Part shown: positions 6,503 to 45,956 of the stretch, piece by piece
How positions within the stretch are numbered: the stretch's first letter is position 1
Layout: each line of letters opens with the position of its first letter
Source: Salinimicrobium sp.
GTDB lineage: Archaea; Thermoplasmatota; Poseidoniia; Poseidoniales; Poseidoniaceae
Direction of reading: 5' to 3'
NCBI GenBank assembly: GCA_964228865.1
Contig: CAXRAI010000071.1
Location: 2,418 to 66,417 of the forward strand
DNA: 64,000 nucleotides
Notes under the pieces: model-generated
Told to the model about the DNA's origin: nothing
The model's database searches: none
The model's input: only the letters and a program-made list of their open reading frames with translations
Position numbers and translations under genes: made by a program

Positions 6503-8824
6503 ATGCTCTCGCGTTTCGGAGCCACGGTCGAAGGCGAAGCGCCGCTTCTGAACGCGTTGTTGATCAAGGCCAACCCGCATGCCATACGGCAACTCAGCAT
6601 CCATGAACACGTGCACTACATGGAGCTTGACCGGCTCCTGGAGTACTTCTACCTCCCAACCGCACCAGGAGGTGCGCCGACCGGGGACGTTGGTGCGCTG
6701 ATGCATGAAACCGTCCACGTGGTGGACGCCACGGACGCTTGGCACCGTGTGATCGTGCAACCTGACGGGTCGATCTCCTATGACCTCGACCTCGGGTTCA
6801 CGGAATGGGACGGCGACGGTACGGCCATCGTCGATCTCGACACGGGTGTGGACGCCGGTCACCCCGACTACGATTACCTCGAACCATGGACCGGCGAGAA
6901 GACGCTGTATTCTGCGAAATGGACACCGGGCGATGGCTGGGTCGAAACCAGGAATTCCGACACTTCTTCGGGTCACGGCACCCACGTTGGTGGAACGATC
7001 GCCGGCAACGGTGACGCCTCCGCAGGCCGTCGAGCGGGGGTTGCCAAGGGTGGACAACTCATCGCCCTTGGTGCCGGAGACGGTGCCTCGATTTTTGCCG
7101 GTGTGCAAGGCCTCGAATGGACCTACGAGCACTCTCGGCCAGGAGCGAACGAATACCACATCCGTGTGGTGTCCAATTCATGGGGCTCTGACGGTGACTA
7201 CGACCCCGAAGGTGCGATCGCCACATTGACCGACAAACTCACCTTCGAGCATGGCGTTGCGGTCATTTTTGCTGCGTCGAACTCAGGTGGGTCTGGTGCC
7301 GAGTGCTCGGGTGATTTGCGCACCAACGTCTACGCCAACACGCCTTCCGCGATTTCTGTGGCGGCCTTGACCCACGACGGCTCCGCCGTGACTTCCTTCT
7401 CCTCGCGAGGCTGCATGGACCAACAACACACCTGGCCCGACGTGGGTGCGCCTGGCCGAGACATCTGGGCGACCGCACCACGCGGGACGGCCATCGATGC
7501 CTCCACCCGAACGCAGGGTGACCTGTACTACATGGCTATCTCTGGCACATCCATGGCCACACCGCACGTGGGTGGCATTGCGGGTTTGCTTATCGACGTG
7601 GCTCCGTCGCTCGGTGTTGCGGACTACCACCGTGACGATCACGACGAGGGTTCAAGCCTCGTCAACGGTGATGGTGCTGCAGCCTACAGGCAGTTCGAAG
7701 ATTGGGACACGGCCAACTATTCACGGGTCCACGAAGTGGAGTTGATCCTCGAATTGACCTCGCGTTACGAGGGGATGGCCAACAGCTGTGAGGACGGCAA
7801 CGACGAAGACAACTGCAACGACATTCCTGAGGCCTGCTACCGCTCAGCGACCGGGCAGTGCCACGATTGGCGCCTCGGTCATGGTTTGGTGGACGTCGAC
7901 GCGGCCATGGGATTGGCGCGAACGCTGCAGCAATTGCGCGACCCGAACCTTGACGGCTTTGTTGATTTCCCGGATTTCACCGTCTGGGACGCGGCTGAGA
8001 TCAGCGATGTTATGCTGACTGAACGAACGATTCCTGTGAATACGGACCGTGTCAGGCACCAGTGGAAAGGCGATTGGAACCACTTCAACAACGGGCCTGG
8101 CGGCGTGTTCGGCGTGTACACCACCAACGACGCGCACCACATGTTCATCCCGAACGGAACGACCACCTTGGAGGCCTACTTCACGCCGACCGAATACGAA
8201 CTTGACACCGGGCAGGTCGGGGCGCTCCAACTGCGCATTGACATGGGTGAAGACGGCACCAACGACGAGGGCGTTGGGACCCGTGAAAGCGACACTTGGA
8301 TCTACACCCTCGAGGTGGACCCGGCCGATTGGGGCACGTGGACGGAGTTCGACGTGGAAGGGCAAGCCATCACCGTGTGGGGGGCGGTTCAGGATTCGGA
8401 GTTCTTTGAGTCCAGCGTGGCGTACACGGTCGATGTCGTGTTGACGCTCGACCTCAGTGAGCCCCGTGACATTGCGTTTGACCAACGGCCCGGGAGTTAC
8501 TCGGACCTTGATCCGACCTCACCGTCTCCGACCTACACCTCGGACATGGACGGACGGTTGACGTTCACGCGCGGCGTGTTTGACCAAGCCGCCGTGGCCG
8601 CTCTGGCCAACGGACTCATCGAGGATGCGACCAGCGAGGAGGACCTGGGCTTCTTTGGTGCCCTGGCCGATCTCATCATCACCTACACCGGTTCGAGTTT
8701 CGTGGCCCTGATGCTGGTCATTTTGCTGGCCCTTGGTGTCAGCACGCTGGTCAGGAACGCCCGTATCGATACGCCAATCCTGCTCAAGAGCGACGACCCT
8801 CTGGACGCGGAACTCGAGGACTGA
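6503..8824 (+). CDS. subtilisin-like serine protease (peptidase S8) with I9 propeptide and C-terminal TM anchor
   Basis: The catalytic triad contexts are VDLDTGVDAGHPD (Asp), GHGTHVGGTIAG (His) and SGTSMATPHVGG (Ser). The C-terminal hydrophobic helix is FVALMLVILLALGVSTLV. The true start probably lies upstream (see the 6251..6502 feature). Confidence 0.9.
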   Translation: MLSRFGATVEGEAPLLNALLIKANPHAIRQLSIHEHVHYMELDRLLEYFYLPTAPGGAPTGDVGALMHETVHVVDATDAWHRVIVQPDGSISYDLDLGFTEWDGDGTAIVDLDTGVDAGHPDYDYLEPWTGEKTLYSAKWTPGDGWVETRNSDTSSGHGTHVGGTIAGNGDASAGRRAGVAKGGQLIALGAGDGASIFAGVQGLEWTYEHSRPGANEYHIRVVSNSWGSDGDYDPEGAIATLTDKLTFEHGVAVIFAASNSGGSGAECSGDLRTNVYANTPSAISVAALTHDGSAVTSFSSRGCMDQQHTWPDVGAPGRDIWATAPRGTAIDASTRTQGDLYYMAISGTSMATPHVGGIAGLLIDVAPSLGVADYHRDDHDEGSSLVNGDGAAAYRQFEDWDTANYSRVHEVELILELTSRYEGMANSCEDGNDEDNCNDIPEACYRSATGQCHDWRLGHGLVDVDAAMGLARTLQQLRDPNLDGFVDFPDFTVWDAAEISDVMLTERTIPVNTDRVRHQWKGDWNHFNNGPGGVFGVYTTNDAHHMFIPNGTTTLEAYFTPTEYELDTGQVGALQLRIDMGEDGTNDEGVGTRESDTWIYTLEVDPADWGTWTEFDVEGQAITVWGAVQDSEFFESSVAYTVDVVLTLDLSEPRDIAFDQRPGSYSDLDPTSPSPTYTSDMDGRLTFTRGVFDQAAVAALANGLIEDATSEEDLGFFGALADLIITYTGSSFVALMLVILLALGVSTLVRNARIDTPILLKSDDPLDAELED

Positions 8825-8901
8825 AGGGCAGTGATGTGCCACGAAGTCGCTTGCGAGGTTTGGATCGATTTAGCATCCCAGTGGATTGATTGGTGGCGGG
8901 T

Positions 8902-9513
8902 TCACTCGCCTCGGGCAAACGCAATCATTCTGTCGATTGGTATGTGGTCCACCGTATCTTTGCAGTAATGGGCCTCCACCACGCGCCCCTCTTCGTCGAT
9001 CAGCACATCGACCGGAATCGTCGCCATCCGGGACGGCGACAGTGTTCGAGGGAAATATCCCCTGAGCGTCGCGGCCATGAACGTCAAAGGAGAGCGCATG
9101 GCGCCCCACATGAACCGGCCGAATGATTTGACCACACCATGCCGGTCAAAGTGTTCGTAGGTTTCGTCAGCCACAAGGAAAAACGGGACCTTCCGTCCAC
9201 CCATACGCTTCCTCAGCTCGTCGATGTTGGCGTCGAACACACCGACCATCACCGCGTCATCTGGAAACTCATTCCATCGCTTTATGAGCCGATCAATGCG
9301 GATGTTGCAAAAAGGACAGGATGCGAACCTGAAAAACGTGAAAATGACCCTTCGGCCGCGGAAATCTTCCAATGAGATGTTTCGTCCATCCAATGACGGG
9401 AGCGAGAAGGAAGGAGCAACGTCCCCTGGCTTGAGTCGGTTTGACATGTACAAATAAGGTGAGAGACCCCTCTTGATGTCGCCGTTAGGAACATCGTGCG
9501 GTTCTTTTCTCAA
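8902..9513 (-). CDS. thioredoxin-fold peroxiredoxin-like protein (AhpC/TSA/redoxin family)
   Basis: GDVAPSFSLPSLDGRNISLEDFRGRRVIFTFFRFASCPFCN has the redoxin layout with a CPFC active site. A 4-nt overlap with the upstream membrane-protein gene suggests an operon. Confidence 0.75.
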   Translation of the reverse strand: MRKEPHDVPNGDIKRGLSPYLYMSNRLKPGDVAPSFSLPSLDGRNISLEDFRGRRVIFTFFRFASCPFCNIRIDRLIKRWNEFPDDAVMVGVFDANIDELRKRMGGRKVPFFLVADETYEHFDRHGVVKSFGRFMWGAMRSPLTFMAATLRGYFPRTLSPSRMATIPVDVLIDEEGRVVEAHYCKDTVDHIPIDRMIAFARGE

Positions 9514-10664
9514 ATGGAGGGCCGCTTGGGAATCTCACCGGCCGTGTCCGAGCGAGGCAGGGCCTCAAGATCTGCAAAGGACATGCCGCCGCTGACCAAT
9601 TCTTTGGATTGCTCCTTGCGCTCGGCCATCGACATCTTCGCTCCGAACACCAAGCGCCCTTCTGCGCGTGTCAAGTCGTAGGAAATCAGCGGGGAGAATT
9701 GGTCCATCGCTTGGGATTCGAACACGTCCCGCACCGACTTCCCCCGCACCAATGCATAACCCCACTGGTAGGCGAAGCCCACCAAGGCTGCACCGTACAG
9801 CACCGCGATGACCACCGCCGAGAACAGCACCGGGTTGCCGTTGCGGATTTCTTCCATCATCGCCCGAACGAGCAGGAGCATCAAGCCAAATCCGACCACG
9901 GGTTTGAGCAGCGAATCAAGCCAGAGGTCGATGGGCGTTAGGGAAGCGTTGGCCGGGTCGGCGAAAACGAGGTCCGTTTCGAAGGCCGCCCCGAGCACGC
10001 CAACCAGCGCGAGCAGCACCACGTACAGCAGGATCGCAAGGAGCGCTTGGATGCCGGTTGAATCGATGCGGAAGGTCCAGAGCACAACCAGCCATGCGAA
10101 GAGGCCCAAGAAGGCCAAGCGCGGCGCACGTTGGAAGTGGCGCAGGTGGTGCGAGAGTTCCATCACGTGTTCTCGCGACACCTCACCGGTGTCCAAGGTG
10201 CGTGGAATGTGGATGATCTGCCAATTGGTGAGCCGTCGCAGGATGTTCAACGCCGTGGCCAGAAGGTTGCGCCGGATGAGCAGGAATTCCGTGGCCATGA
10301 AAACGGGGAAAGCCAGCAAAATCACCGGTGCCGCGAGCAGCAAGGCAATGGGGAAGACAAACAAGGCCGGAAGGAGGATGAAGTGACCAAGGCCCAGAGG
10401 ATAGATGGTGTCGGCTTCCAACAAGCGCTGGCGTTGTGGGCTGATGCCGGCTTCCCTTGCGCGGTCATTGAGGGCTGTTCGGAAGGCTTCGAGGGGCATG
10501 CCCGCGTGCAAGATTCGACGTACGTCAGCCCGGTAGCTCATGTTGTCGATGGAAGACCCGACGCGAAGTTGCCACGCGATGCGGAGCGGCAGGGCAAGCA
10601 GCACTGGGATGAGCAGGATGCCCAGCGCAGAAGCAAGGGCGTCCATGCCCGGCTCGGTGGCCAC
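9510..10664 (-). CDS. polytopic membrane protein, unknown function (384 aa)
   Basis: There are multiple long hydrophobic segments and no recognisable family motif. The stop overlaps the start of the peroxiredoxin-like gene. Confidence 0.6.
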   Translation of the reverse strand: MATEPGMDALASALGILLIPVLLALPLRIAWQLRVGSSIDNMSYRADVRRILHAGMPLEAFRTALNDRAREAGISPQRQRLLEADTIYPLGLGHFILLPALFVFPIALLLAAPVILLAFPVFMATEFLLIRRNLLATALNILRRLTNWQIIHIPRTLDTGEVSREHVMELSHHLRHFQRAPRLAFLGLFAWLVVLWTFRIDSTGIQALLAILLYVVLLALVGVLGAAFETDLVFADPANASLTPIDLWLDSLLKPVVGFGLMLLLVRAMMEEIRNGNPVLFSAVVIAVLYGAALVGFAYQWGYALVRGKSVRDVFESQAMDQFSPLISYDLTRAEGRLVFGAKMSMAERKEQSKELVSGGMSFADLEALPRSDTAGEIPKRPSI

Positions 10665-11713: not shown

Positions 11714-11777
11714 TCACTTCACCTTCAGCGCACCCTCCCTGCGTGGCTTCCTCCATCCCTGATGCGGTGGCCGAGGC

Positions 11778-12035
11778 ATGGGCCGAAGTGTACCAACATG
11801 GCGGGTGCGTGTGGATCAAGAGTTGCAGGCGTTGGCGCCATACCGACGTTTGTTGCCTCACGATGAACAAGCGGTGTTCGATGACATGCTTGCTCATCTC
11901 CGCCAACGACGCGGAGTGGCTGGTATGCTCCCCGCCCATGACCCGTGGACGCCCCTGCTCTTGACGGCCCTGCTCGAAGCATGGGTTCGCCTTCGGTCCC
12001 TGGAAGATGCCTTGGGGGAACGGGATGCAGCCTAG
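11778..12035 (+). CDS. small helical hypothetical protein (85 aa), coupled to polB
   Basis: The ORF starts at an ATG 64 nt after the dehydrogenase stop. Its TAG stop overlaps the polB start region (ATG 12025 lies within GGATGCAGCCTAG). No family was recognised. Confidence 0.4.
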   Translation: MGRSVPTWRVRVDQELQALAPYRRLLPHDEQAVFDDMLAHLRQRRGVAGMLPAHDPWTPLLLTALLEAWVRLRSLEDALGERDAA

Positions 12036-14388
12036 TTGGTTGCTCGATGTGCACGACGAGGGCACTGGCGTGCTCACGGCATGGGTCCGCCAGCAAGGAG
12101 GGCCGGCTCGCTCGTGGCGTTTTGTGGCTCCGTGCATGCTCCACATCACGGCCATTCCCGAACGTCTCCGTGCGCTTCAGGTGTGGCTTGATCAGCCCGA
12201 GGTTCGGTTGCACTATGGCGTGATGGAATGCACGTCCATCGAAGCCCCGATCGCGTTGGGAGGCCCCATGCATCCTGTGCTCGAAGTGACGCTTCACCGA
12301 CCACGAGAGCGCCTCCGACTGGCTCGCGCCATCGACGACCGAGGGCTTCACCGTCACCACACGTTGCTCTCGGTCGACGTCGACCCAGTCCAAGCCTGGT
12401 TGACGGCCCATGGCATCGAACTCTTTGGTGGGGTGCAGTTCTCGACCGCTTCGCTCAACCCCCTCCCCTGTGCGGACGTCATGCACGATGTGCGCGTGCT
12501 TCGCATGGACGGCGACTGGGACGGTCCGCTGCACGACGGTCGGCTGCGGGCGGTCCACTTGACGCCGGTGGAGGCGGTTGGGTTCACGCCGCTTCAGCAA
12601 ACGGACGTGGTTTTGCTCGAGGCCGCAGATGGGATGGAACGCCTGATGGATGCGTTTGACCGGCACGATCCAGATGTCGTTTTGACCGAGGGGGGCGATG
12701 CCCACCTCTTGCCTGCCTTGCGTCAACGGGCGGAGGCATGGGGTGTTCATCTGCGCCTTGGGCGCTCGGCATCGGCCGTACCGACGCCGACGCGACGAAC
12801 CACCGTGCGTTCGTACGGCCGTTTGCTGCGACGAGGCGGACACCATCGCTTGGAAGGACGTGTGCACATCGACCTTGCCACGAGTTTTCTCGGACGAGAG
12901 GCTGGGCTCCCAGGCTTGATCGAACTGGCGCAGGCTTCTGGCCGTCCTCTTGATGCGGTGGCTCGGCGCTCACCAGGTGCCGTGATCAGCGCCATCCAGG
13001 TGCGTACGGCCATGCAGGACGGCGTGCTGATTCCATGGCGCAAGAACCGACCCGAAGACACCACGACCGGGTGGGACTTGCTTCACGCGGATCGCGGAGG
13101 CCTGCATCTCGACCCGAGGCCGGGCCTCTATGACGACGTGTTTGAACTGGACTTTGCCAGCCTCTTTCCAAGCATCATCGCCACGCGAAACATCTCACCC
13201 GAGACCCTTGGATGCACCTGTTGCACCGGGCACGGTCGCGGCTCCTTTGTCCCGCTTGACCCCGATGACGCCAAGCGGTGGTTTCGACAGCGTTCCGTCA
13301 GTCGACGGTTGGATCCTGGTCCACGCTCACCTCCCGCAGCCTTGAGCGTCCCCGGTCTTGAATTGCGCACATGCCTCCAGCAGCACGGTTTGCTTGGTCG
13401 CGTGGTGGCTCCCCTCATCCGGCGTCGTTCGGAACTCAAAGCCCAACGGACGGGTCCTCGTGACGATGCAGACCGCCGTCAAACGGCCTTGAAGTGGCTT
13501 CTTGTGACGTGCTTTGGATACACAGGGTACCGCAACGCACGATTCGGGCGCATTGAGGCGCATGAAGCGATTTGTGCGTGGGCGCGCGAGGTCATGCTGG
13601 AGGGCATTGAAGCAGCCCGGGCCGACGGTTGGGACGTCGTTCATGGCATCGTCGACAGCTTGTGGATCACCGATGCCTCAGGGCGTGGTTTCAACGAGCG
13701 GGCTGAGGCGGCCCAACGTTTGGCGGACCGCCTTGGGGCCACCACAGGCATCCCCTTGGAGGTGGAAGGCCGCTATCCCGTACTGGCCATTCTTCCACGT
13801 CGTTCCGACGGTGCTGGTGCGTTAACACGGTACTGGGGTTGTGGTTTCGATGCGGTCAAAGTCAGGGGCATTGAGGCAAGGCAGCACTCGACCAGTCCTT
13901 TTGTCAAGCGTTTCCAAACGGAGGCACTCGAAGCCCTTCGCCTCCACGTGCTGGCCCACGGTGTGAGCAAAGACGCCATGGAAGCGTTGTTGCTTGAAGC
14001 CCACGATCGGGCTCGGAACCGTTTGATGACCGGACAGGTTGCTCTGCGTGATTTGCTCGTTGCTCAGCGGGTTGAGCGAAGCCTGGAAGAACGCAGCGTG
14101 AACACCGTGTTGCAGCGCGCCATGTCCCGTTCTTCTCGGTTGGGCTGGCCGGTTGCCCTTGGTTCTCGCCTTCGTTTTGTGGAGGTGGAGGGCAACGACG
14201 ACGGGGTTGTGTTGGCCACAGAGTTGGACGGCATGGCCTCAACCCATCTCAGGCCTGCGCTCGAGGTCCATGTCCGCCGCCTCGACCGGGCGGCGTGGTC
14301 GCTGCTTGCACCGTTCGGCTGGAAGTTGGAGCCCCTTCGACGACCACTCGGCCAAGGTCGGTTGCCCGTGCTCCGTAACGGAGCGTGA
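12007..14388 (+). CDS. polB: family B DNA polymerase, exonuclease motifs not recognisable, variant motif C (PolB2-like?)
   Basis: Motif A is [11 protein letters not shown] (13147-13179). Motif B is [19 protein letters not shown] (13492-13548). Motif C reads HGIVDSLW (13642-13665) instead of YGDTDS. The expected ExoI/ExoII positions read [10 protein letters not shown] and [15 protein letters not shown], without DxE or NxxxFD. An alternative start is ATG 12025. Confidence 0.85.
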
Positions 14389-15096
14389 ACGCAGCGGATG
14401 GAGGAGGCACCATGCCCCTCCTTCGCGGCGAAGGCGGAGCACGCCGTCGTTTCCACTGTTCACCTCCAGTCGACTTTGTGCAATGTTGGCCAGCCTTTGC
14501 GCGCGCCACGCATGCGCCCCTGATCCGTGCCGCCCGTCAATCACGACCACGGTGGTGGCGTTGGCGTGCACGGTGCGTTCCAAGTCTGCGCAGAGGTGAC
14601 GTACCAGGTCCCGTTTCTCCCGGGCCCGCAGTTCATCGTCGTCGAACATGGCCATCGGGGCATCGACCACAACAAGGCGTGAACCGCTGTCTCGCACCTC
14701 ATCAGGAAGCCGTTTCACCATGGCCGCGCATTGGTGTGCGGTGAAGCCTCGAGCGACCCGCAACGAACGGAGGGCCCGTGGTCCGACGCCGAGGCGGGCA
14801 AGCCAGGGTGAAAACCGTCCGGGATCCAGCCGACATGCTCCATCGATCCAGTGCACGACATGACCGCTGGCCAACGCGAGCGCAACCCACGCCTCGGCCA
14901 CGGGGCGTGCACGTCGCCCGTGCCGTCCGTCGCCCACCAGCACGTGGACACCGGGTTGGCGAGGTCGGAACTCGGCCGCAGCACGGGAACGAATCGCGGG
15001 TGCTGGATGCATGGGCTCACCGGACCTTCGCGTCCGCCCGAGGAGGTGGTGAAGCCTGTCGATGACCCGTCGTGGGAAGTGAAGCGCAGGCCTCAA
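14239..15096 (-). CDS. RecA/RadB-fold-like protein with degenerate Walker A (ImuA/SulA-like in logic)
   Basis: The layout resembles RadB/KaiC-type RecA folds. VLVGDGRHGRRA occupies the P-loop position (GDGRHGRR at 14911-14934, no GK[ST]). HVVHWIDGACRLDPGRF, and Walker-B-like LVVVDAPMAMFDDDE. The only alternative ORFs in this 730-nt interval are Arg/Pro-rich junk. The start could be ATG 15012. The 3' end overlaps polB by 150 nt. Confidence 0.6.
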   Translation of the reverse strand: MRPALHFPRRVIDRLHHLLGRTRRSGEPMHPAPAIRSRAAAEFRPRQPGVHVLVGDGRHGRRARPVAEAWVALALASGHVVHWIDGACRLDPGRFSPWLARLGVGPRALRSLRVARGFTAHQCAAMVKRLPDEVRDSGSRLVVVDAPMAMFDDDELRAREKRDLVRHLCADLERTVHANATTVVVIDGRHGSGAHAWRAQRLANIAQSRLEVNSGNDGVLRLRREGGAWCLLHPLRSRSVTEHGQPTLAEWSSKGLQLPAERCKQRPRRPVEAADMDLERRPEMG

Positions 15097-15121
15097 ACAC
15101 CTTCGACACCGAAAGGCATCC

Positions 15122-16279
15122 GTGGAGCAAGGTGGGAAGATCCTTGTTCACTGCGATTTGGATGCGTTCTATGCAGCAGTGGAAACCCTTCATCGGGGTC
15201 TTGATCCGGAAGTTCCGCTGATCATTGGGGCGGACCCAAAATCCGGACGAGGTCGAGGCATCGTCAGCACCTGCAATTACGCCGCACGCGCGTACGGTGT
15301 GCGCTCAGCCATGCCCATCAGCGAAGCATGGCGGCGTTGTCCGGCAGCTCCCGCAGGACCAGCGACCTATGTGCGTGGCTCGCACCGGCTTTACGCGCGT
15401 GCTTCGCGACGGGTGATGTCGCTCTTGCGTGAGGTCGGCGGGCCCTTTGAGCAGGCCAGCATTGACGAGGCATACCTCGACGTCACCGAAGCCACTGGGG
15501 GTGATTGGGACCAAGCGGTGGCCTTGTGCGAGCGTTTGCAGCGTGACGTTGTCAAAGCCACGGGGTTGACCGCATCGTTTGGTCTTGGACCGACACGGCT
15601 CTTGGCGAAAATGAGCAGTGAAGAACGAAAACCGCAAGGGTTGTTCAGGCTGATGCCGGGCGATGCGGCGGATTTTTTCCAGGGCCGTCCGCTTCGAGAA
15701 ATACCTGGCATCGGTCCAGCGACGGCCACCGCCATGCAGGAGTGGGGCGTTCAAACCGTGGACGAGGCCTATGGTCTCGGCGAATTGGCCTTGGCCCGCA
15801 TGGTTGGGCCACGTTTCGCCGCCTGGTTGATGGCGGTGGTTGAGGAGCGCACCAGCGACGACGTCAGTGTCCTCCGCTCTCGAAAGTCCATCGGCAAAGA
15901 GACGACCTTTGAACGCGATCAACACGATGAAGAGCACGTTCTCGAGCAGTTGCTTGCGTTGGTGTCACGGGTCATGGAGCGTGCGTCAGAACTCGGTGTC
16001 GTGGGCCGCTTGGGGGAGGTCAAAGTGAGGTACAAGGGCTTCGAAACCCGGACCCACCGGCGTTCTATTCCCGTCGCCATGGACGATCCCGCGGTCTTCA
16101 AGGCCCTTGCAACGCGTTTGTTCGCCACCAGCCTTGAGCGTGAGCGACCGGTTCGGTTGGTGGGCTTCCGTCTCGGGGACTTGGAAGACCCTCCGACCCG
16201 ACAGGTGACCCTTGAGCGGTTCGATCCATCAGGCCAAACGGTGCATGGACGTGAGCACGGGTCGGAACGCCTCGAGTGA
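15122..16279 (+). CDS. dinB: Y-family DNA polymerase IV (DinB/Dpo4)
   Basis: Canonical motifs are all present: ILVHCDLDAFYAAVE, SIDEAYLDVT, LLAKMSSEERKPQG and the HhH segment IPGIGPATA. The start is GTG at 15122. Confidence 0.9.
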   Translation: MEQGGKILVHCDLDAFYAAVETLHRGLDPEVPLIIGADPKSGRGRGIVSTCNYAARAYGVRSAMPISEAWRRCPAAPAGPATYVRGSHRLYARASRRVMSLLREVGGPFEQASIDEAYLDVTEATGGDWDQAVALCERLQRDVVKATGLTASFGLGPTRLLAKMSSEERKPQGLFRLMPGDAADFFQGRPLREIPGIGPATATAMQEWGVQTVDEAYGLGELALARMVGPRFAAWLMAVVEERTSDDVSVLRSRKSIGKETTFERDQHDEEHVLEQLLALVSRVMERASELGVVGRLGEVKVRYKGFETRTHRRSIPVAMDDPAVFKALATRLFATSLERERPVRLVGFRLGDLEDPPTRQVTLERFDPSGQTVHGREHGSERLE

Positions 16280-44894: not shown

Positions 44895-45956
44895 TCACCG
44901 TTTCGAAATCTGCAGGTTCCAAGCCGTTTCCCGCATCCGTTCAATCAAGTCATCCCTGGTCAACACGAAGCGGTCAGTTCGATCGGCGCCAAGGATGCAT
45001 TCTGAAGCGGCATTCGCCATCAAAGCGGTCGCTTGCACGTCCATGCCTGTGGCCACCGCAGCGGTAATGGCAACAGCGGCCGCATCGATGAGGCCGATCA
45101 TCTGCTTGAGTTCGGTGAGGGTGCAATCGACGTGTGCATCTTCACCTTCCTGACCGTAAATCGTCACACCAGTGGACCCTTCGAGCACAAGGAGGTGCCC
45201 CCAGCCATGTTCTTCCAACAGCCCGTGGGCTGCTTGGGCAGGGTTGTCCGCGCCCAACCTTCGGCGCATCAATTCCAAACCTTGGGATTGCATGACCACC
45301 CAAGCCACGCCCTGCGTCCGGTGAAAACCGGTCAATTTTGGATCTGCGATGACCGGCACACCTGCAGCATTGGCACGTTCAATCAGGCGTGCGGCTCCTT
45401 CGTCCGTCACCACGCCTTGGCCGTAATCGGAGAGAATGACCGCCGCTGCGCCTTCGACTTGTTCACACGCCAAGTCGTACATTGCATCAAGGGCGGGTCC
45501 TGGCATCGGTTCGTCTGCTTCGATGTCCCAACGAAGCATCAGTTGTTCATCCCGAACAAGGTTCTGCCGGGTGGCCAGCAGCCTTGTTTTCACCGTCGTG
45601 ATTCGTCCTTCAACGATGCTGATGGTGTCGGTGTTGACGCCTTCCTCGTTCAGGTACTCCAACACGCTCACGCCAGCGGTGTCGTCACCTACGACGCCAA
45701 ACAAGCACGGTTTGAAACCAAGCGACACCAGTCCACGGGCCACGTGGGCTGCAGCCCCTACGGCTTCTTCTCGACGTGTTTCCTTGAGCACAGGAACAGG
45801 GGCTCTCGTGTTGAGGTTGTCAGCGAAACCGTGGATGTAACGGTCCATCATGATGTCACCCACCAACACCACGTTGGTGGACGGCAGGTTCCCAAGGGTG
45901 CCAATGATGGACGTCAACCGGTCATGAGCGTCCATTTCTGAGTCGGTCATCCCCAT
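44895..45956 (-). CDS. PfkB-family sugar kinase, RfaE domain-I-like
   Basis: VVLVGDIMMDRYIHGFADNLNTRAPVPVLKE matches the RfaE/HldE kinase N-terminus. The C-terminal ANAASECILGA segment is typical of PfkB kinases. Confidence 0.78.
   Translation of the reverse strand: MGMTDSEMDAHDRLTSIIGTLGNLPSTNVVLVGDIMMDRYIHGFADNLNTRAPVPVLKETRREEAVGAAAHVARGLVSLGFKPCLFGVVGDDTAGVSVLEYLNEEGVNTDTISIVEGRITTVKTRLLATRQNLVRDEQLMLRWDIEADEPMPGPALDAMYDLACEQVEGAAAVILSDYGQGVVTDEGAARLIERANAAGVPVIADPKLTGFHRTQGVAWVVMQSQGLELMRRRLGADNPAQAAHGLLEEHGWGHLLVLEGSTGVTIYGQEGEDAHVDCTLTELKQMIGLIDAAAVAITAAVATGMDVQATALMANAASECILGADRTDRFVLTRDDLIERMRETAWNLQISKR

Follow-up and report, generated by a model that had tools for sequence, protein, structure and literature searches.

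Introduction

A predicted archaeal operon joining an "inactivated" B-family DNA polymerase, PolB2, to a small alpha-helical protein (arCOG07300) and an inactivated paralogue of RadA was reported by Makarova et al. in 2014 (PMC4104785). The names PPB2 and iRadA for the two partners come from Timinskas et al. (2025), who modelled a PolB2:iRadA:PPB2x3 heteropentamer, the "mutasome" (PMC11791011). Their dataset holds operons from Poseidoniales (Marine Group II), which they class as group 3b (PPB2-PolB2-iRadA), and Poseidoniales representatives are among the published models (PMC11791011). Here we analyze a locus found in a 64,000-nucleotide (nt) stretch of DNA from contig CAXRAI010000071.1, hereafter referred to as the window. 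Positions 11714-15086 of the window very probably correspond to a Poseidoniales copy of this known translesion module, operon group 3b, in which a common promoter element precedes both transcription units. An initial reading of the sequence (hereafter the first-pass annotation) had left it undecided whether this gene linkage was already known. The three-gene module was in fact published in 2014 and again in 2025, so that the gene set itself (PPB2, PolB2, iRadA) brings nothing new, and even the surrounding DinB, valyl-tRNA synthetase (ValRS) and 2-hydroxyacid dehydrogenase (2-Hacid_dh) genes figure in the published Table S1, where the co-occurrence of the DinB domain IMS is tabulated. The only item for which no published description was found is the shared promoter element.

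The prototype of the published module is Sulfolobus Dpo2. Translesion synthesis (TLS) in Sulfolobus involves two steps, with Dpo4 inserting and Dpo2 extending (PMC8721586, PMC8764526), and sequential action of the two polymerases has been demonstrated in vitro (PMC8721586). The Sulfolobales also provide a precedent for the control of such genes: a damage-response element of sequence 5'-A(N)TTTC-3', located upstream of the BRE (the element recognized by transcription factor B) and TATA box, is needed for damage induction and is bound by Orc1-2. In S. islandicus, induction of dpo2, the PolB2 gene, is Orc1-2-dependent, and dpo4 is not damage-induced (PMC5817253, PMC6061795).

Results

Composition of the locus

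The first-pass annotation had recognized four adjacent genes in this region, and all four open reading frames (ORFs) were recovered at the positions it gave. The features of the locus, in the order of their coordinates, are:

11714-11727, plus strand: putative damage-response-like element TCACTTCACCTTCA, at -64 to -51 from the PPB2 ATG
11778-12035, plus strand: PPB2 (arCOG07300; Pfam DUF8156, PF26485), 85 aa, with the N-terminal arm MGRSVPTWR
12007-14388, plus strand: PolB2, a B-family polymerase with a predicted dead exonuclease, 793-aa ORF, motif C IVD; ATG 12025 is a possible alternative start
14239-15012, minus strand (ORF open to TTG 15096): iRadA, an inactive RadA/Rad51-core protein, 257 aa
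14344-14364, minus strand: motif QPTLAEW, resembling a PCNA-interacting protein (PIP) motif, in the iRadA tail (aa 217-223), where a short helix is predicted at 220-223
15073-15086, minus strand: second copy of the element, oriented as iRadA (reverse complement CGCTTCACTTCCCA; also given as the reverse complement of TGGGAAGTGAAGCG), in the divergent intergenic region
15093-15100, plus strand: box TCAAACAC, located 22-29 nt before the GTG of dinB
15122-16279, plus strand: DinB/Dpo4-type Y-family polymerase, GTG start, divergent from iRadA

The window shares with the published PolB2 mutasome the same three proteins, the change in motif C, a dead exonuclease, the MGR(S/T) arm and a RadA core devoid of both the N-terminal domain and a working Walker A, as well as the gene order PPB2-PolB2-iRadA that defines group 3b. 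All of the sequence-level features defining the PolB2 module that could be checked were found, except for the K/R residue of the D(K/R) motif, which is replaced here (D-L). The window locus also differs in its layout. Whereas the three genes are mostly co-oriented in the dataset of Timinskas et al. (PMC11791011), iRadA of the window lies on the opposite strand, convergent to polB2, and the 3' ends of the two genes overlap by 150 nt (14239-14388). There is moreover no orc1/cdc6 gene nearby (none was found among 10 further window ORFs scanned), the divergent neighbor being a canonical dinB.

Comparison with other polymerase assemblies places the window genes at a greater distance. With the Rev1/Pol zeta and Dpo4/Dpo2 pairs they have in common a putative exonuclease-less B-family extender that would follow a Y-family inserter; unlike in Rev1/Pol zeta, however, the accessory subunits show no relationship to Rev7, Pol31 and Pol32, and the DinB-PolB2 pairing is one of gene neighborhood. 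Bacterial ImuA-ImuB-DnaE2 (ImuC) cassettes bring together an inactive RecA-fold protein and an error-prone polymerase in one damage-inducible unit. The first-pass annotation had likened the locus to this system, and such a pairing is indeed common to both, but the likeness is one of analogy only. The polymerase of the bacterial system is of the C-family and that of the window of the B-family, ImuB is a catalytically dead adaptor whereas DinB keeps D12 and D115/E116, and PPB2 has no counterpart; the defining combination of a C-family DnaE2 with a dead Y-family ImuB is thus not found among the window genes. Finally, Timinskas et al. (PMC11791011) draw a parallel with the E. coli Pol V mutasome (UmuD'2C-RecA-ATP), which likewise unites a TLS polymerase with an oligomeric accessory protein of small size and a single RecA/Rad51-family protomer. 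Here the catalytic subunit is B-family rather than Y-family, the RecA partner is a dedicated inactive paralogue in place of the active recombinase, and the accessory proteins are unrelated.

PolB2 has an altered motif C and a destroyed Exo II

DNA_pol_B (PF00136) was the sole Pfam match of the polymerase (E=2.6e-16), and the PolB equivalog models of NCBIfam matched it far below their cut-offs. A database protein 100% identical to the window polymerase is 787 aa long, which favors ATG 12025 over ATG 12007 as the start of polB2; from either start, the gene overlaps the PPB2 stop. HMMER alignment with the PolB proteins of Deep Vent and P. abyssi showed motif A to be kept (LDFASLFPS in the window, LDFRSLYPS in the references) and motif B, which reads KILANSYYGYYGY in the Pyrococcus-type reference, to be recognizable and diverged. 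In motif C, DTD is replaced by IVD (HGIVDSLWI versus YIDTDGLY). Exo II, NGDSFD in the references, reads GGDAHL; Exo I was not recognized, with HMMER aligning nothing N-terminal of residue 207, and Exo III was not identified within the aligned segments. Judged from this alignment, the active site of the proofreading exonuclease is lost, in line with the first-pass description of a polymerase with motifs A and B present, motif C altered and unrecognizable exonuclease motifs.

Residues I548, V549 and D550 were invariant in 13 diverse homologues, and the motif region of the window protein is near-identical to that of haloarchaeal PolB2 in the published supplementary table (ALKWILVACFGYQGF...HGIVDSIWV). 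The search for PolB2 homologues returned 1254 sequences at E<=1e-10, the best 120 of which were labelled mostly as marine-metagenome or Poseidoniales. The SYG...GRxHID block is present as well, S269, Y270, G271, G284, R285 and H287 being invariant and D289 nearly so. In the published definition, the D(K/R) motif follows a Rad51-like oligomerization motif in a loop of PolB2, and contacts both iRadA and PPB2 (PMC11791011).

PPB2 and iRadA have the motifs and predicted folds of their families

PPB2 is defined in the literature as a protein of ~90 aa consisting of three helices preceded by an N-terminal MGRT arm, with arginine at positions 3 and 9 (PMC11791011). The 85-aa helical ORF that the first pass had noted, its stop overlapping the polB2 start, conforms to this description: its arm agrees with the published motif including Arg3 and Arg9, and AlphaFold2 (AF2) predicted an arm (residues 1-7) followed by helices at 8-23, 28-43 and 57-84, with a predicted local distance difference test (pLDDT) score of 72. 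Residues 1-9 are invariant in close homologues, and read MGR[ST]V[PA]TWR in the wider set. Homologues up to 94% identical to the window protein carry a precomputed PF26485 assignment. Our own Pfam scan of the ORF gave no match even at E<=10, but neither did it for relatives bearing the precomputed assignment, indicating that the local copy of Pfam is devoid of the PF26485 model.

The RecA-like ORF, which the first-pass annotation had described as 285 aa long, is real, convergent to polB2 and carries the features noted at the time, but is likely shorter: homologues are 257 aa long, pointing to ATG 15012 rather than TTG 15096 as the start of iRadA. This start leaves a divergent spacer of 109 nt between iRadA and dinB. 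Walker A is degenerate (GDGRHGRR, aa 27-34), with both the Lys and the Thr replaced by Arg, and the corresponding stretch is variable or deleted among homologues; a Walker-B-like sequence, LVVVDAPMAMFDDDE, is present at aa 113-127. The sequence match of iRadA to RadA is weak; Foldseek returned RadA/Rad51 ATPase cores as top matches (E ~1e-10, TM-scores of 0.6-0.7), so that the predicted RecA-like fold is borne out, and the family profile retrieved 863 cluster representatives. In the AF2 model (pLDDT 75), the core (residues 1-205) is confident and the C-terminal tail disordered; the protein starts ~20 residues ahead of the first core strand and the N-terminal helical domain is missing.

The 150-nt overlap between polB2 and iRadA was considered as a conserved functional feature and rejected, since the overlap varies among relatives from -16 to 219 nt (median 62; 57 unique loci). 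In the window, the tail of iRadA, including its PIP-like motif, is encoded within this overlap, antisense to the C-terminus of PolB2.

The protein hosting the clamp motif varies between Poseidoniales clades. The published pattern is that the motif occurs in either iRadA or PolB2, and rarely in both (PMC11791011). The window clade agrees with it, the PIP-like motif being present in iRadA and missing from PolB2. In sister clades (L012, L014, L015, L017, L018, L032 and L084 in the locus collection described below), QPSLLDF or QPTLLSF is found at the C-terminus of PolB2 and the motif is missing from iRadA. Some DinB-less clades (e.g. L055, L057 and L059) have a PIP-like motif in both proteins.

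A tandem-repeat element precedes both transcription units

To place the window among its relatives, 88 loci, mostly from metagenome contigs, were collected and annotated with hidden Markov models built for this analysis. A search of genome contigs with a single PolB2 protein yielded one locus, L008, "Euryarchaeota archaeon UBA495". As the first pass had required of a genuine module, the PPB2-PolB2-iRadA arrangement is conserved across many related loci. The four-gene arrangement itself recurs in many independent metagenomic contigs, and is thus not a product of chance.

Upstream regions of these loci revealed an element with the consensus CACTTTCACTTTCA, a non-palindromic tandem direct repeat of two ACTTTC units. 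It lies ~50-75 nt upstream of the starts of both PPB2 and iRadA in loci L001-L063, L074 and L084. Whatever the gene found upstream, the element starts at -61 to -73 from the PPB2 ATG in ~40 of 47 unique Poseidoniales upstream regions. A position weight matrix (PWM) trained on the PPB2 upstreams alone found 23 matches of at least 13 bits upstream of iRadA, versus 24 in the other ~780 kb of sequence, both strands included. Scored by strand, 16 of 49 iRadA upstreams contained a match at this threshold in the sense orientation and none of the 49 in antisense, compared to 1.8% of random 350-nt regions.

In the window, the iRadA copy of the element occupies positions -61 to -74 relative to the ATG of iRadA, and on the other side its end is 36 nt away from the dinB GTG. 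Both window copies are one base shorter than the consensus and are conserved as such within the window clade, where the element is followed by CCCTCCC. The shortening of one repeat by a base explains why the window copy falls below the PWM threshold. In dinB-linked loci the element lies in the spacer shared by iRadA and dinB, and has been kept in all dinB-linked subclades, the remainder of the spacer sequence being variable. It is equally present upstream of iRadA genes with no dinB nearby, and thus belongs to iRadA. A second box, TCAAACAC in the window, is conserved as T(C/G)AA(A/G)CAC in 23 of the 24 unique intergenic regions of dinB-linked loci that were examined (it is absent from L003) and was not seen by eye in the iRadA upstreams of dinB-less loci. 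This box probably belongs to the core promoter of dinB.

Except for one weak match, the element is absent from the co-oriented iRadA-PPB2-PolB2 loci in which iRadA is detectable (L068-L081). Six loci (L064, L066, L076, L082, L085 and L088) carry GCACTTTCAC followed by a C-rich stretch, CCCCTCCCCC, directly upstream of polB2 and again of PPB2. They represent a distant high-GC PolB2 lineage, 31-36% identical to the window PolB2. A literature search on the motif string, and on Poseidoniales together with PolB2, returned nothing relevant.

The PWM was also tried as a marker of other repair genes and abandoned, as the 24 matches elsewhere were mostly intra-coding or beside unrelated or unannotated ORFs, and no regulon could be defined. 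The sole match in the window outside the locus (45137-45150) is antisense inside a PfkB kinase gene.

dinB is linked to the module in part of the Poseidoniales

As the first pass had it, the Y-family gene encodes a fully canonical DinB, divergent from the RecA-like gene. The protein matched IMS (PF00817, E=3.6e-38) and IMS_C (PF11799, E=9.1e-23), and the Pol IV models of NCBIfam at up to 1.7e-75, just under their cut-offs. It could be aligned to E. coli Pol IV over residues 4-363, D12 and D115/E116 corresponding to D8 and D103/E104, with DxD and DE conserved. A PIP-like motif, QVTLERF, is found near the C-terminus (aa 361-367). By these sequence features, the protein is a canonical Y-family polymerase whose catalytic site is intact.

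Convergent iRadA genes were found in 63 of the 88 loci, 45 of which extend at least 2.5 kb downstream of polB2 and constitute the evaluable set. dinB is present in 19 of these 45 Poseidoniales-type loci and absent from the other 26 within a downstream flank of 2.5-8 kb. The presence of dinB is associated with a block of housekeeping genes. Wherever the contig permits the observation, dinB-linked loci have a 2-hydroxyacid dehydrogenase gene upstream (20/20) and a ValRS gene downstream (18/19), in the order 2-hydroxyacid dehydrogenase, PPB2, PolB2, iRadA, DinB, ValRS; neither gene accompanies any of the dinB-less loci (0/26). The distant loci (31-36% identity) with a detectable iRadA are co-oriented, iRadA-PPB2-PolB2, and have no dinB. 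In a rough neighbor-joining (NJ) tree of PolB2, the dinB-linked loci are paraphyletic and the dinB-less loci form two clades, one of which is nested among the dinB-linked loci; the module of three genes thus switched genomic context on at least two occasions without dinB traveling along. Loci from metagenomes are phylogenetically non-independent, however, and the counts given here therefore overstate the number of independent events.

These figures are in keeping with the published Table S1, in which group 3b operons are listed with IMS (46/95), 2-Hacid_dh_C (45/95) and tRNA-synt_1 (42/95) in their vicinity, and only 4 of 1375 group 1a operons have IMS near polB2 (PMC11791011). Timinskas et al. 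count IMS near polB2 in this table and do not discuss it (PMC11791011). Thus, the co-location that the first pass had proposed to examine across Poseidoniales and beyond holds for PPB2, polB2 and iRadA, but extends to dinB in part of the Poseidoniales only. As dinB is missing whenever the module sits in another context, DinB is not a fixed fourth component of the module, but a lineage-specific neighbor within a conserved housekeeping block.

Discussion

Gene content, motifs, folds, synteny statistics and the conservation of the promoter motif are direct observations on this locus and its relatives, and together they make us highly confident that the window carries a group 3b PolB2 module. Several points weigh against this assignment. 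Support for the module in Poseidoniales comes from sequence and from predicted structures of single chains. In PolB2, the published D(K/R) motif reads D-L (HIDLATSF), leaving one published contact unconserved. The confidence of the PPB2 model is moderate (pLDDT 72, predicted template modelling score 0.44), and membership of this small protein in its family is drawn from close homologues and motifs. The non-independence of the metagenome loci noted above counts on the same side. For the promoter element, the call in the window clade is based on position and on within-clade conservation, the PWM score being low.

The following mechanism, with the formation of a complex, its extender activity, its induction by damage and any hand-off between DinB and PolB2, is what we infer by homology with Sulfolobus Dpo2 and from published AlphaFold models. 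PolB2 would serve as an exonuclease-free extender, elongating mismatched or lesion-paired primer ends. It would bind one iRadA through a Rad51-like oligomerization contact as well as a trimer of PPB2, whose conserved arm (MGRS...R9) would reach in close to the DNA, between PolB2 and iRadA. In the window clade, PCNA would be recruited through the PIP-like QPTLAEW of the disordered iRadA tail. The module would be expressed as two units transcribed toward each other, PPB2-polB2 and iRadA, with a CACTTTCACTTTCA-type element at a similar distance ahead of each that would keep the two co-regulated, probably in response to DNA damage. DinB would be a stand-alone polymerase with its own clamp motif and promoter box, which may insert ahead of PolB2 and may share the element. 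The mutasome proposed by the first-pass annotation is thus retained with respect to the exonuclease-dead B-family polymerase, the ATPase-dead RecA-fold protein and the small coupled helical protein, and given up with respect to DinB as a fourth component.

The presence of one element in front of both the PPB2-polB2 and the iRadA units would explain how a split, convergent module can stay coordinated. As in the Sulfolobales, the ACTTTC unit fits A(N)TTTC, is non-palindromic, lies upstream of the presumed core promoter, and precedes a gene of the same family (PolB2). The candidate element of the window differs, however, in being a tandem dimer rather than a single hexamer and in belonging to a different phylum (Thermoplasmatota). 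The match of a hexamer being weak in itself, we treat the resemblance to the Sulfolobales motif as a lead. That the element is a Poseidoniales damage-response element, functionally homologous to the Orc1-2-bound A(N)TTTC and coordinating both units (and, in dinB-linked lineages, dinB through a bidirectional promoter), is accordingly worded here as a tentative proposal, which we consider possible and short of probable. If it were true, an Orc1/Cdc6-type damage regulon over PolB2 would span the Thermoproteota to uncultured marine Thermoplasmatota; the related GCACTTTCAC box in the distant high-GC PolB2 lineage points in the direction of such a widespread regulon. Marine Group II archaea are abundant, uncultured inhabitants of sunlit surface waters, and the element offers a handle on the control of damage tolerance in these organisms, and a means of asking whether an Orc1-2-type damage response as found in Sulfolobales is widespread in archaea.

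An extension of the module reading would make DinB and PolB2 a co-regulated inserter-extender pair, dinB being driven by the iRadA element through a bidirectional promoter and both polymerases induced after damage. The location of the element in the shared spacer, 36 nt from the dinB GTG and ~61 nt from the iRadA ATG, next to the dinB box, makes co-regulation possible. Both boxes persist in every dinB-linked subclade against an otherwise variable spacer, and the Sulfolobales furnish precedents both for the control, with their Orc1-2-bound element and Orc1-2-dependent dpo2, and for the sequential action of the two polymerases in vitro. Yet the element is non-palindromic and oriented toward iRadA rather than dinB, it is equally present in front of iRadA genes that have no dinB as a neighbor, and the Y-family dpo4 of S. 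islandicus is not damage-induced. On balance, we hold co-regulation of dinB to be conceivable but somewhat doubtful. The two-polymerase TLS scheme of the first pass has an experimental precedent in Dpo4 and Dpo2 of Sulfolobus.

The four-component mutasome raised by the first pass from the analogy with ImuA-ImuB-DnaE2 or Rev1-Pol zeta, with DinB as an obligate subunit, physical or functional, of the PolB2 complex, is unlikely. dinB does remain adjacent and divergent to iRadA across PolB2 sequences diverging down to ~41% identity, the 109-nt intergenic region common to the two genes carries the conserved element, and Dpo4 and Dpo2 of Sulfolobus act one after the other. However, 26 of the 45 evaluable loci have no dinB within the downstream flank surveyed, and the linkage seen in the others is explained equally well by housekeeping synteny (ValRS, 18/19; 2-Hacid_dh, 20/20). 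IMS is found near polB2 in a mere 4 of 1375 group 1a operons; DinB itself is intact and equipped with its own PIP-like motif and promoter box, as is typical of a stand-alone Pol IV/Dpo4; and the published high-confidence models of the complex need no Y-family partner.

Loss of the first Asp of motif C and divergence of motif B could be taken to mean that the PolB2-iRadA-PPB2 assembly is catalytically inert and regulates replication or origin use rather than TLS, as proposed early on by Makarova et al. in 2014 (PMC4104785). We find this very improbable given that Dpo2 from S. islandicus and S. solfataricus, despite a similar substitution in motif C (IID), are robust polymerases devoid of proofreading, that Dpo2 is required for targeted mutagenesis, and that none of the 95 group 3b operons has an orc1/cdc6 neighbor. 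Finally, that the enzyme is an ordinary replicative or repair polymerase of the PolB3/PolB1 type whose degenerate look stems from misalignment, an objection already anticipated in the first-pass annotation, is barely credible: it matches PF00136 and archaeal PolB structures (E ~1e-26), but the Pyrococcus-type alignment places IVD in the position of DTD and shows Exo II to be destroyed, scores are far under the NCBIfam cut-offs for all PolB equivalogs, the IVD residues are invariant across the 13 diverse homologues, and the gene invariably has PPB2 and iRadA at its flanks.

Other observations on the locus and its neighbors

Two loci of the collection depart from the usual layout around iRadA. 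In L002 (a 2.0-Mb contig), iRadA appears to be frameshifted near its 5' end at ~8001-9140, yielding two overlapping ORF pieces (P0015/P0016) with the N-terminus unaligned, either due to an assembly error or to the gene being a pseudogene. In the dinB-linked locus L033, and in this locus only, an additional ~2.2 kb lies between polB2 and iRadA.

In the window, dinB and the convergent ValRS gene overlap at their 3' ends by 51 nt (16229-16279), and the two genes show the same or a near-abutting arrangement in related loci. On the other side of the module, positions 9510-10664 (minus strand) encode a multi-pass membrane protein with no Pfam match, divergent from the 2-hydroxyacid dehydrogenase gene and conserved, with homologues in L029 and L035. 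A moderate PWM match falls at or just inside the 5' end of homologues of this gene in L028, L029 and L035, and is probably due to chance. A further match of 13.6 bits was found in L049 (5186-5199, plus strand), 17 nt upstream of a 123-aa ORF that might, as a guess from its sequence, encode an OB-fold single-stranded DNA-binding protein; this is a single case.

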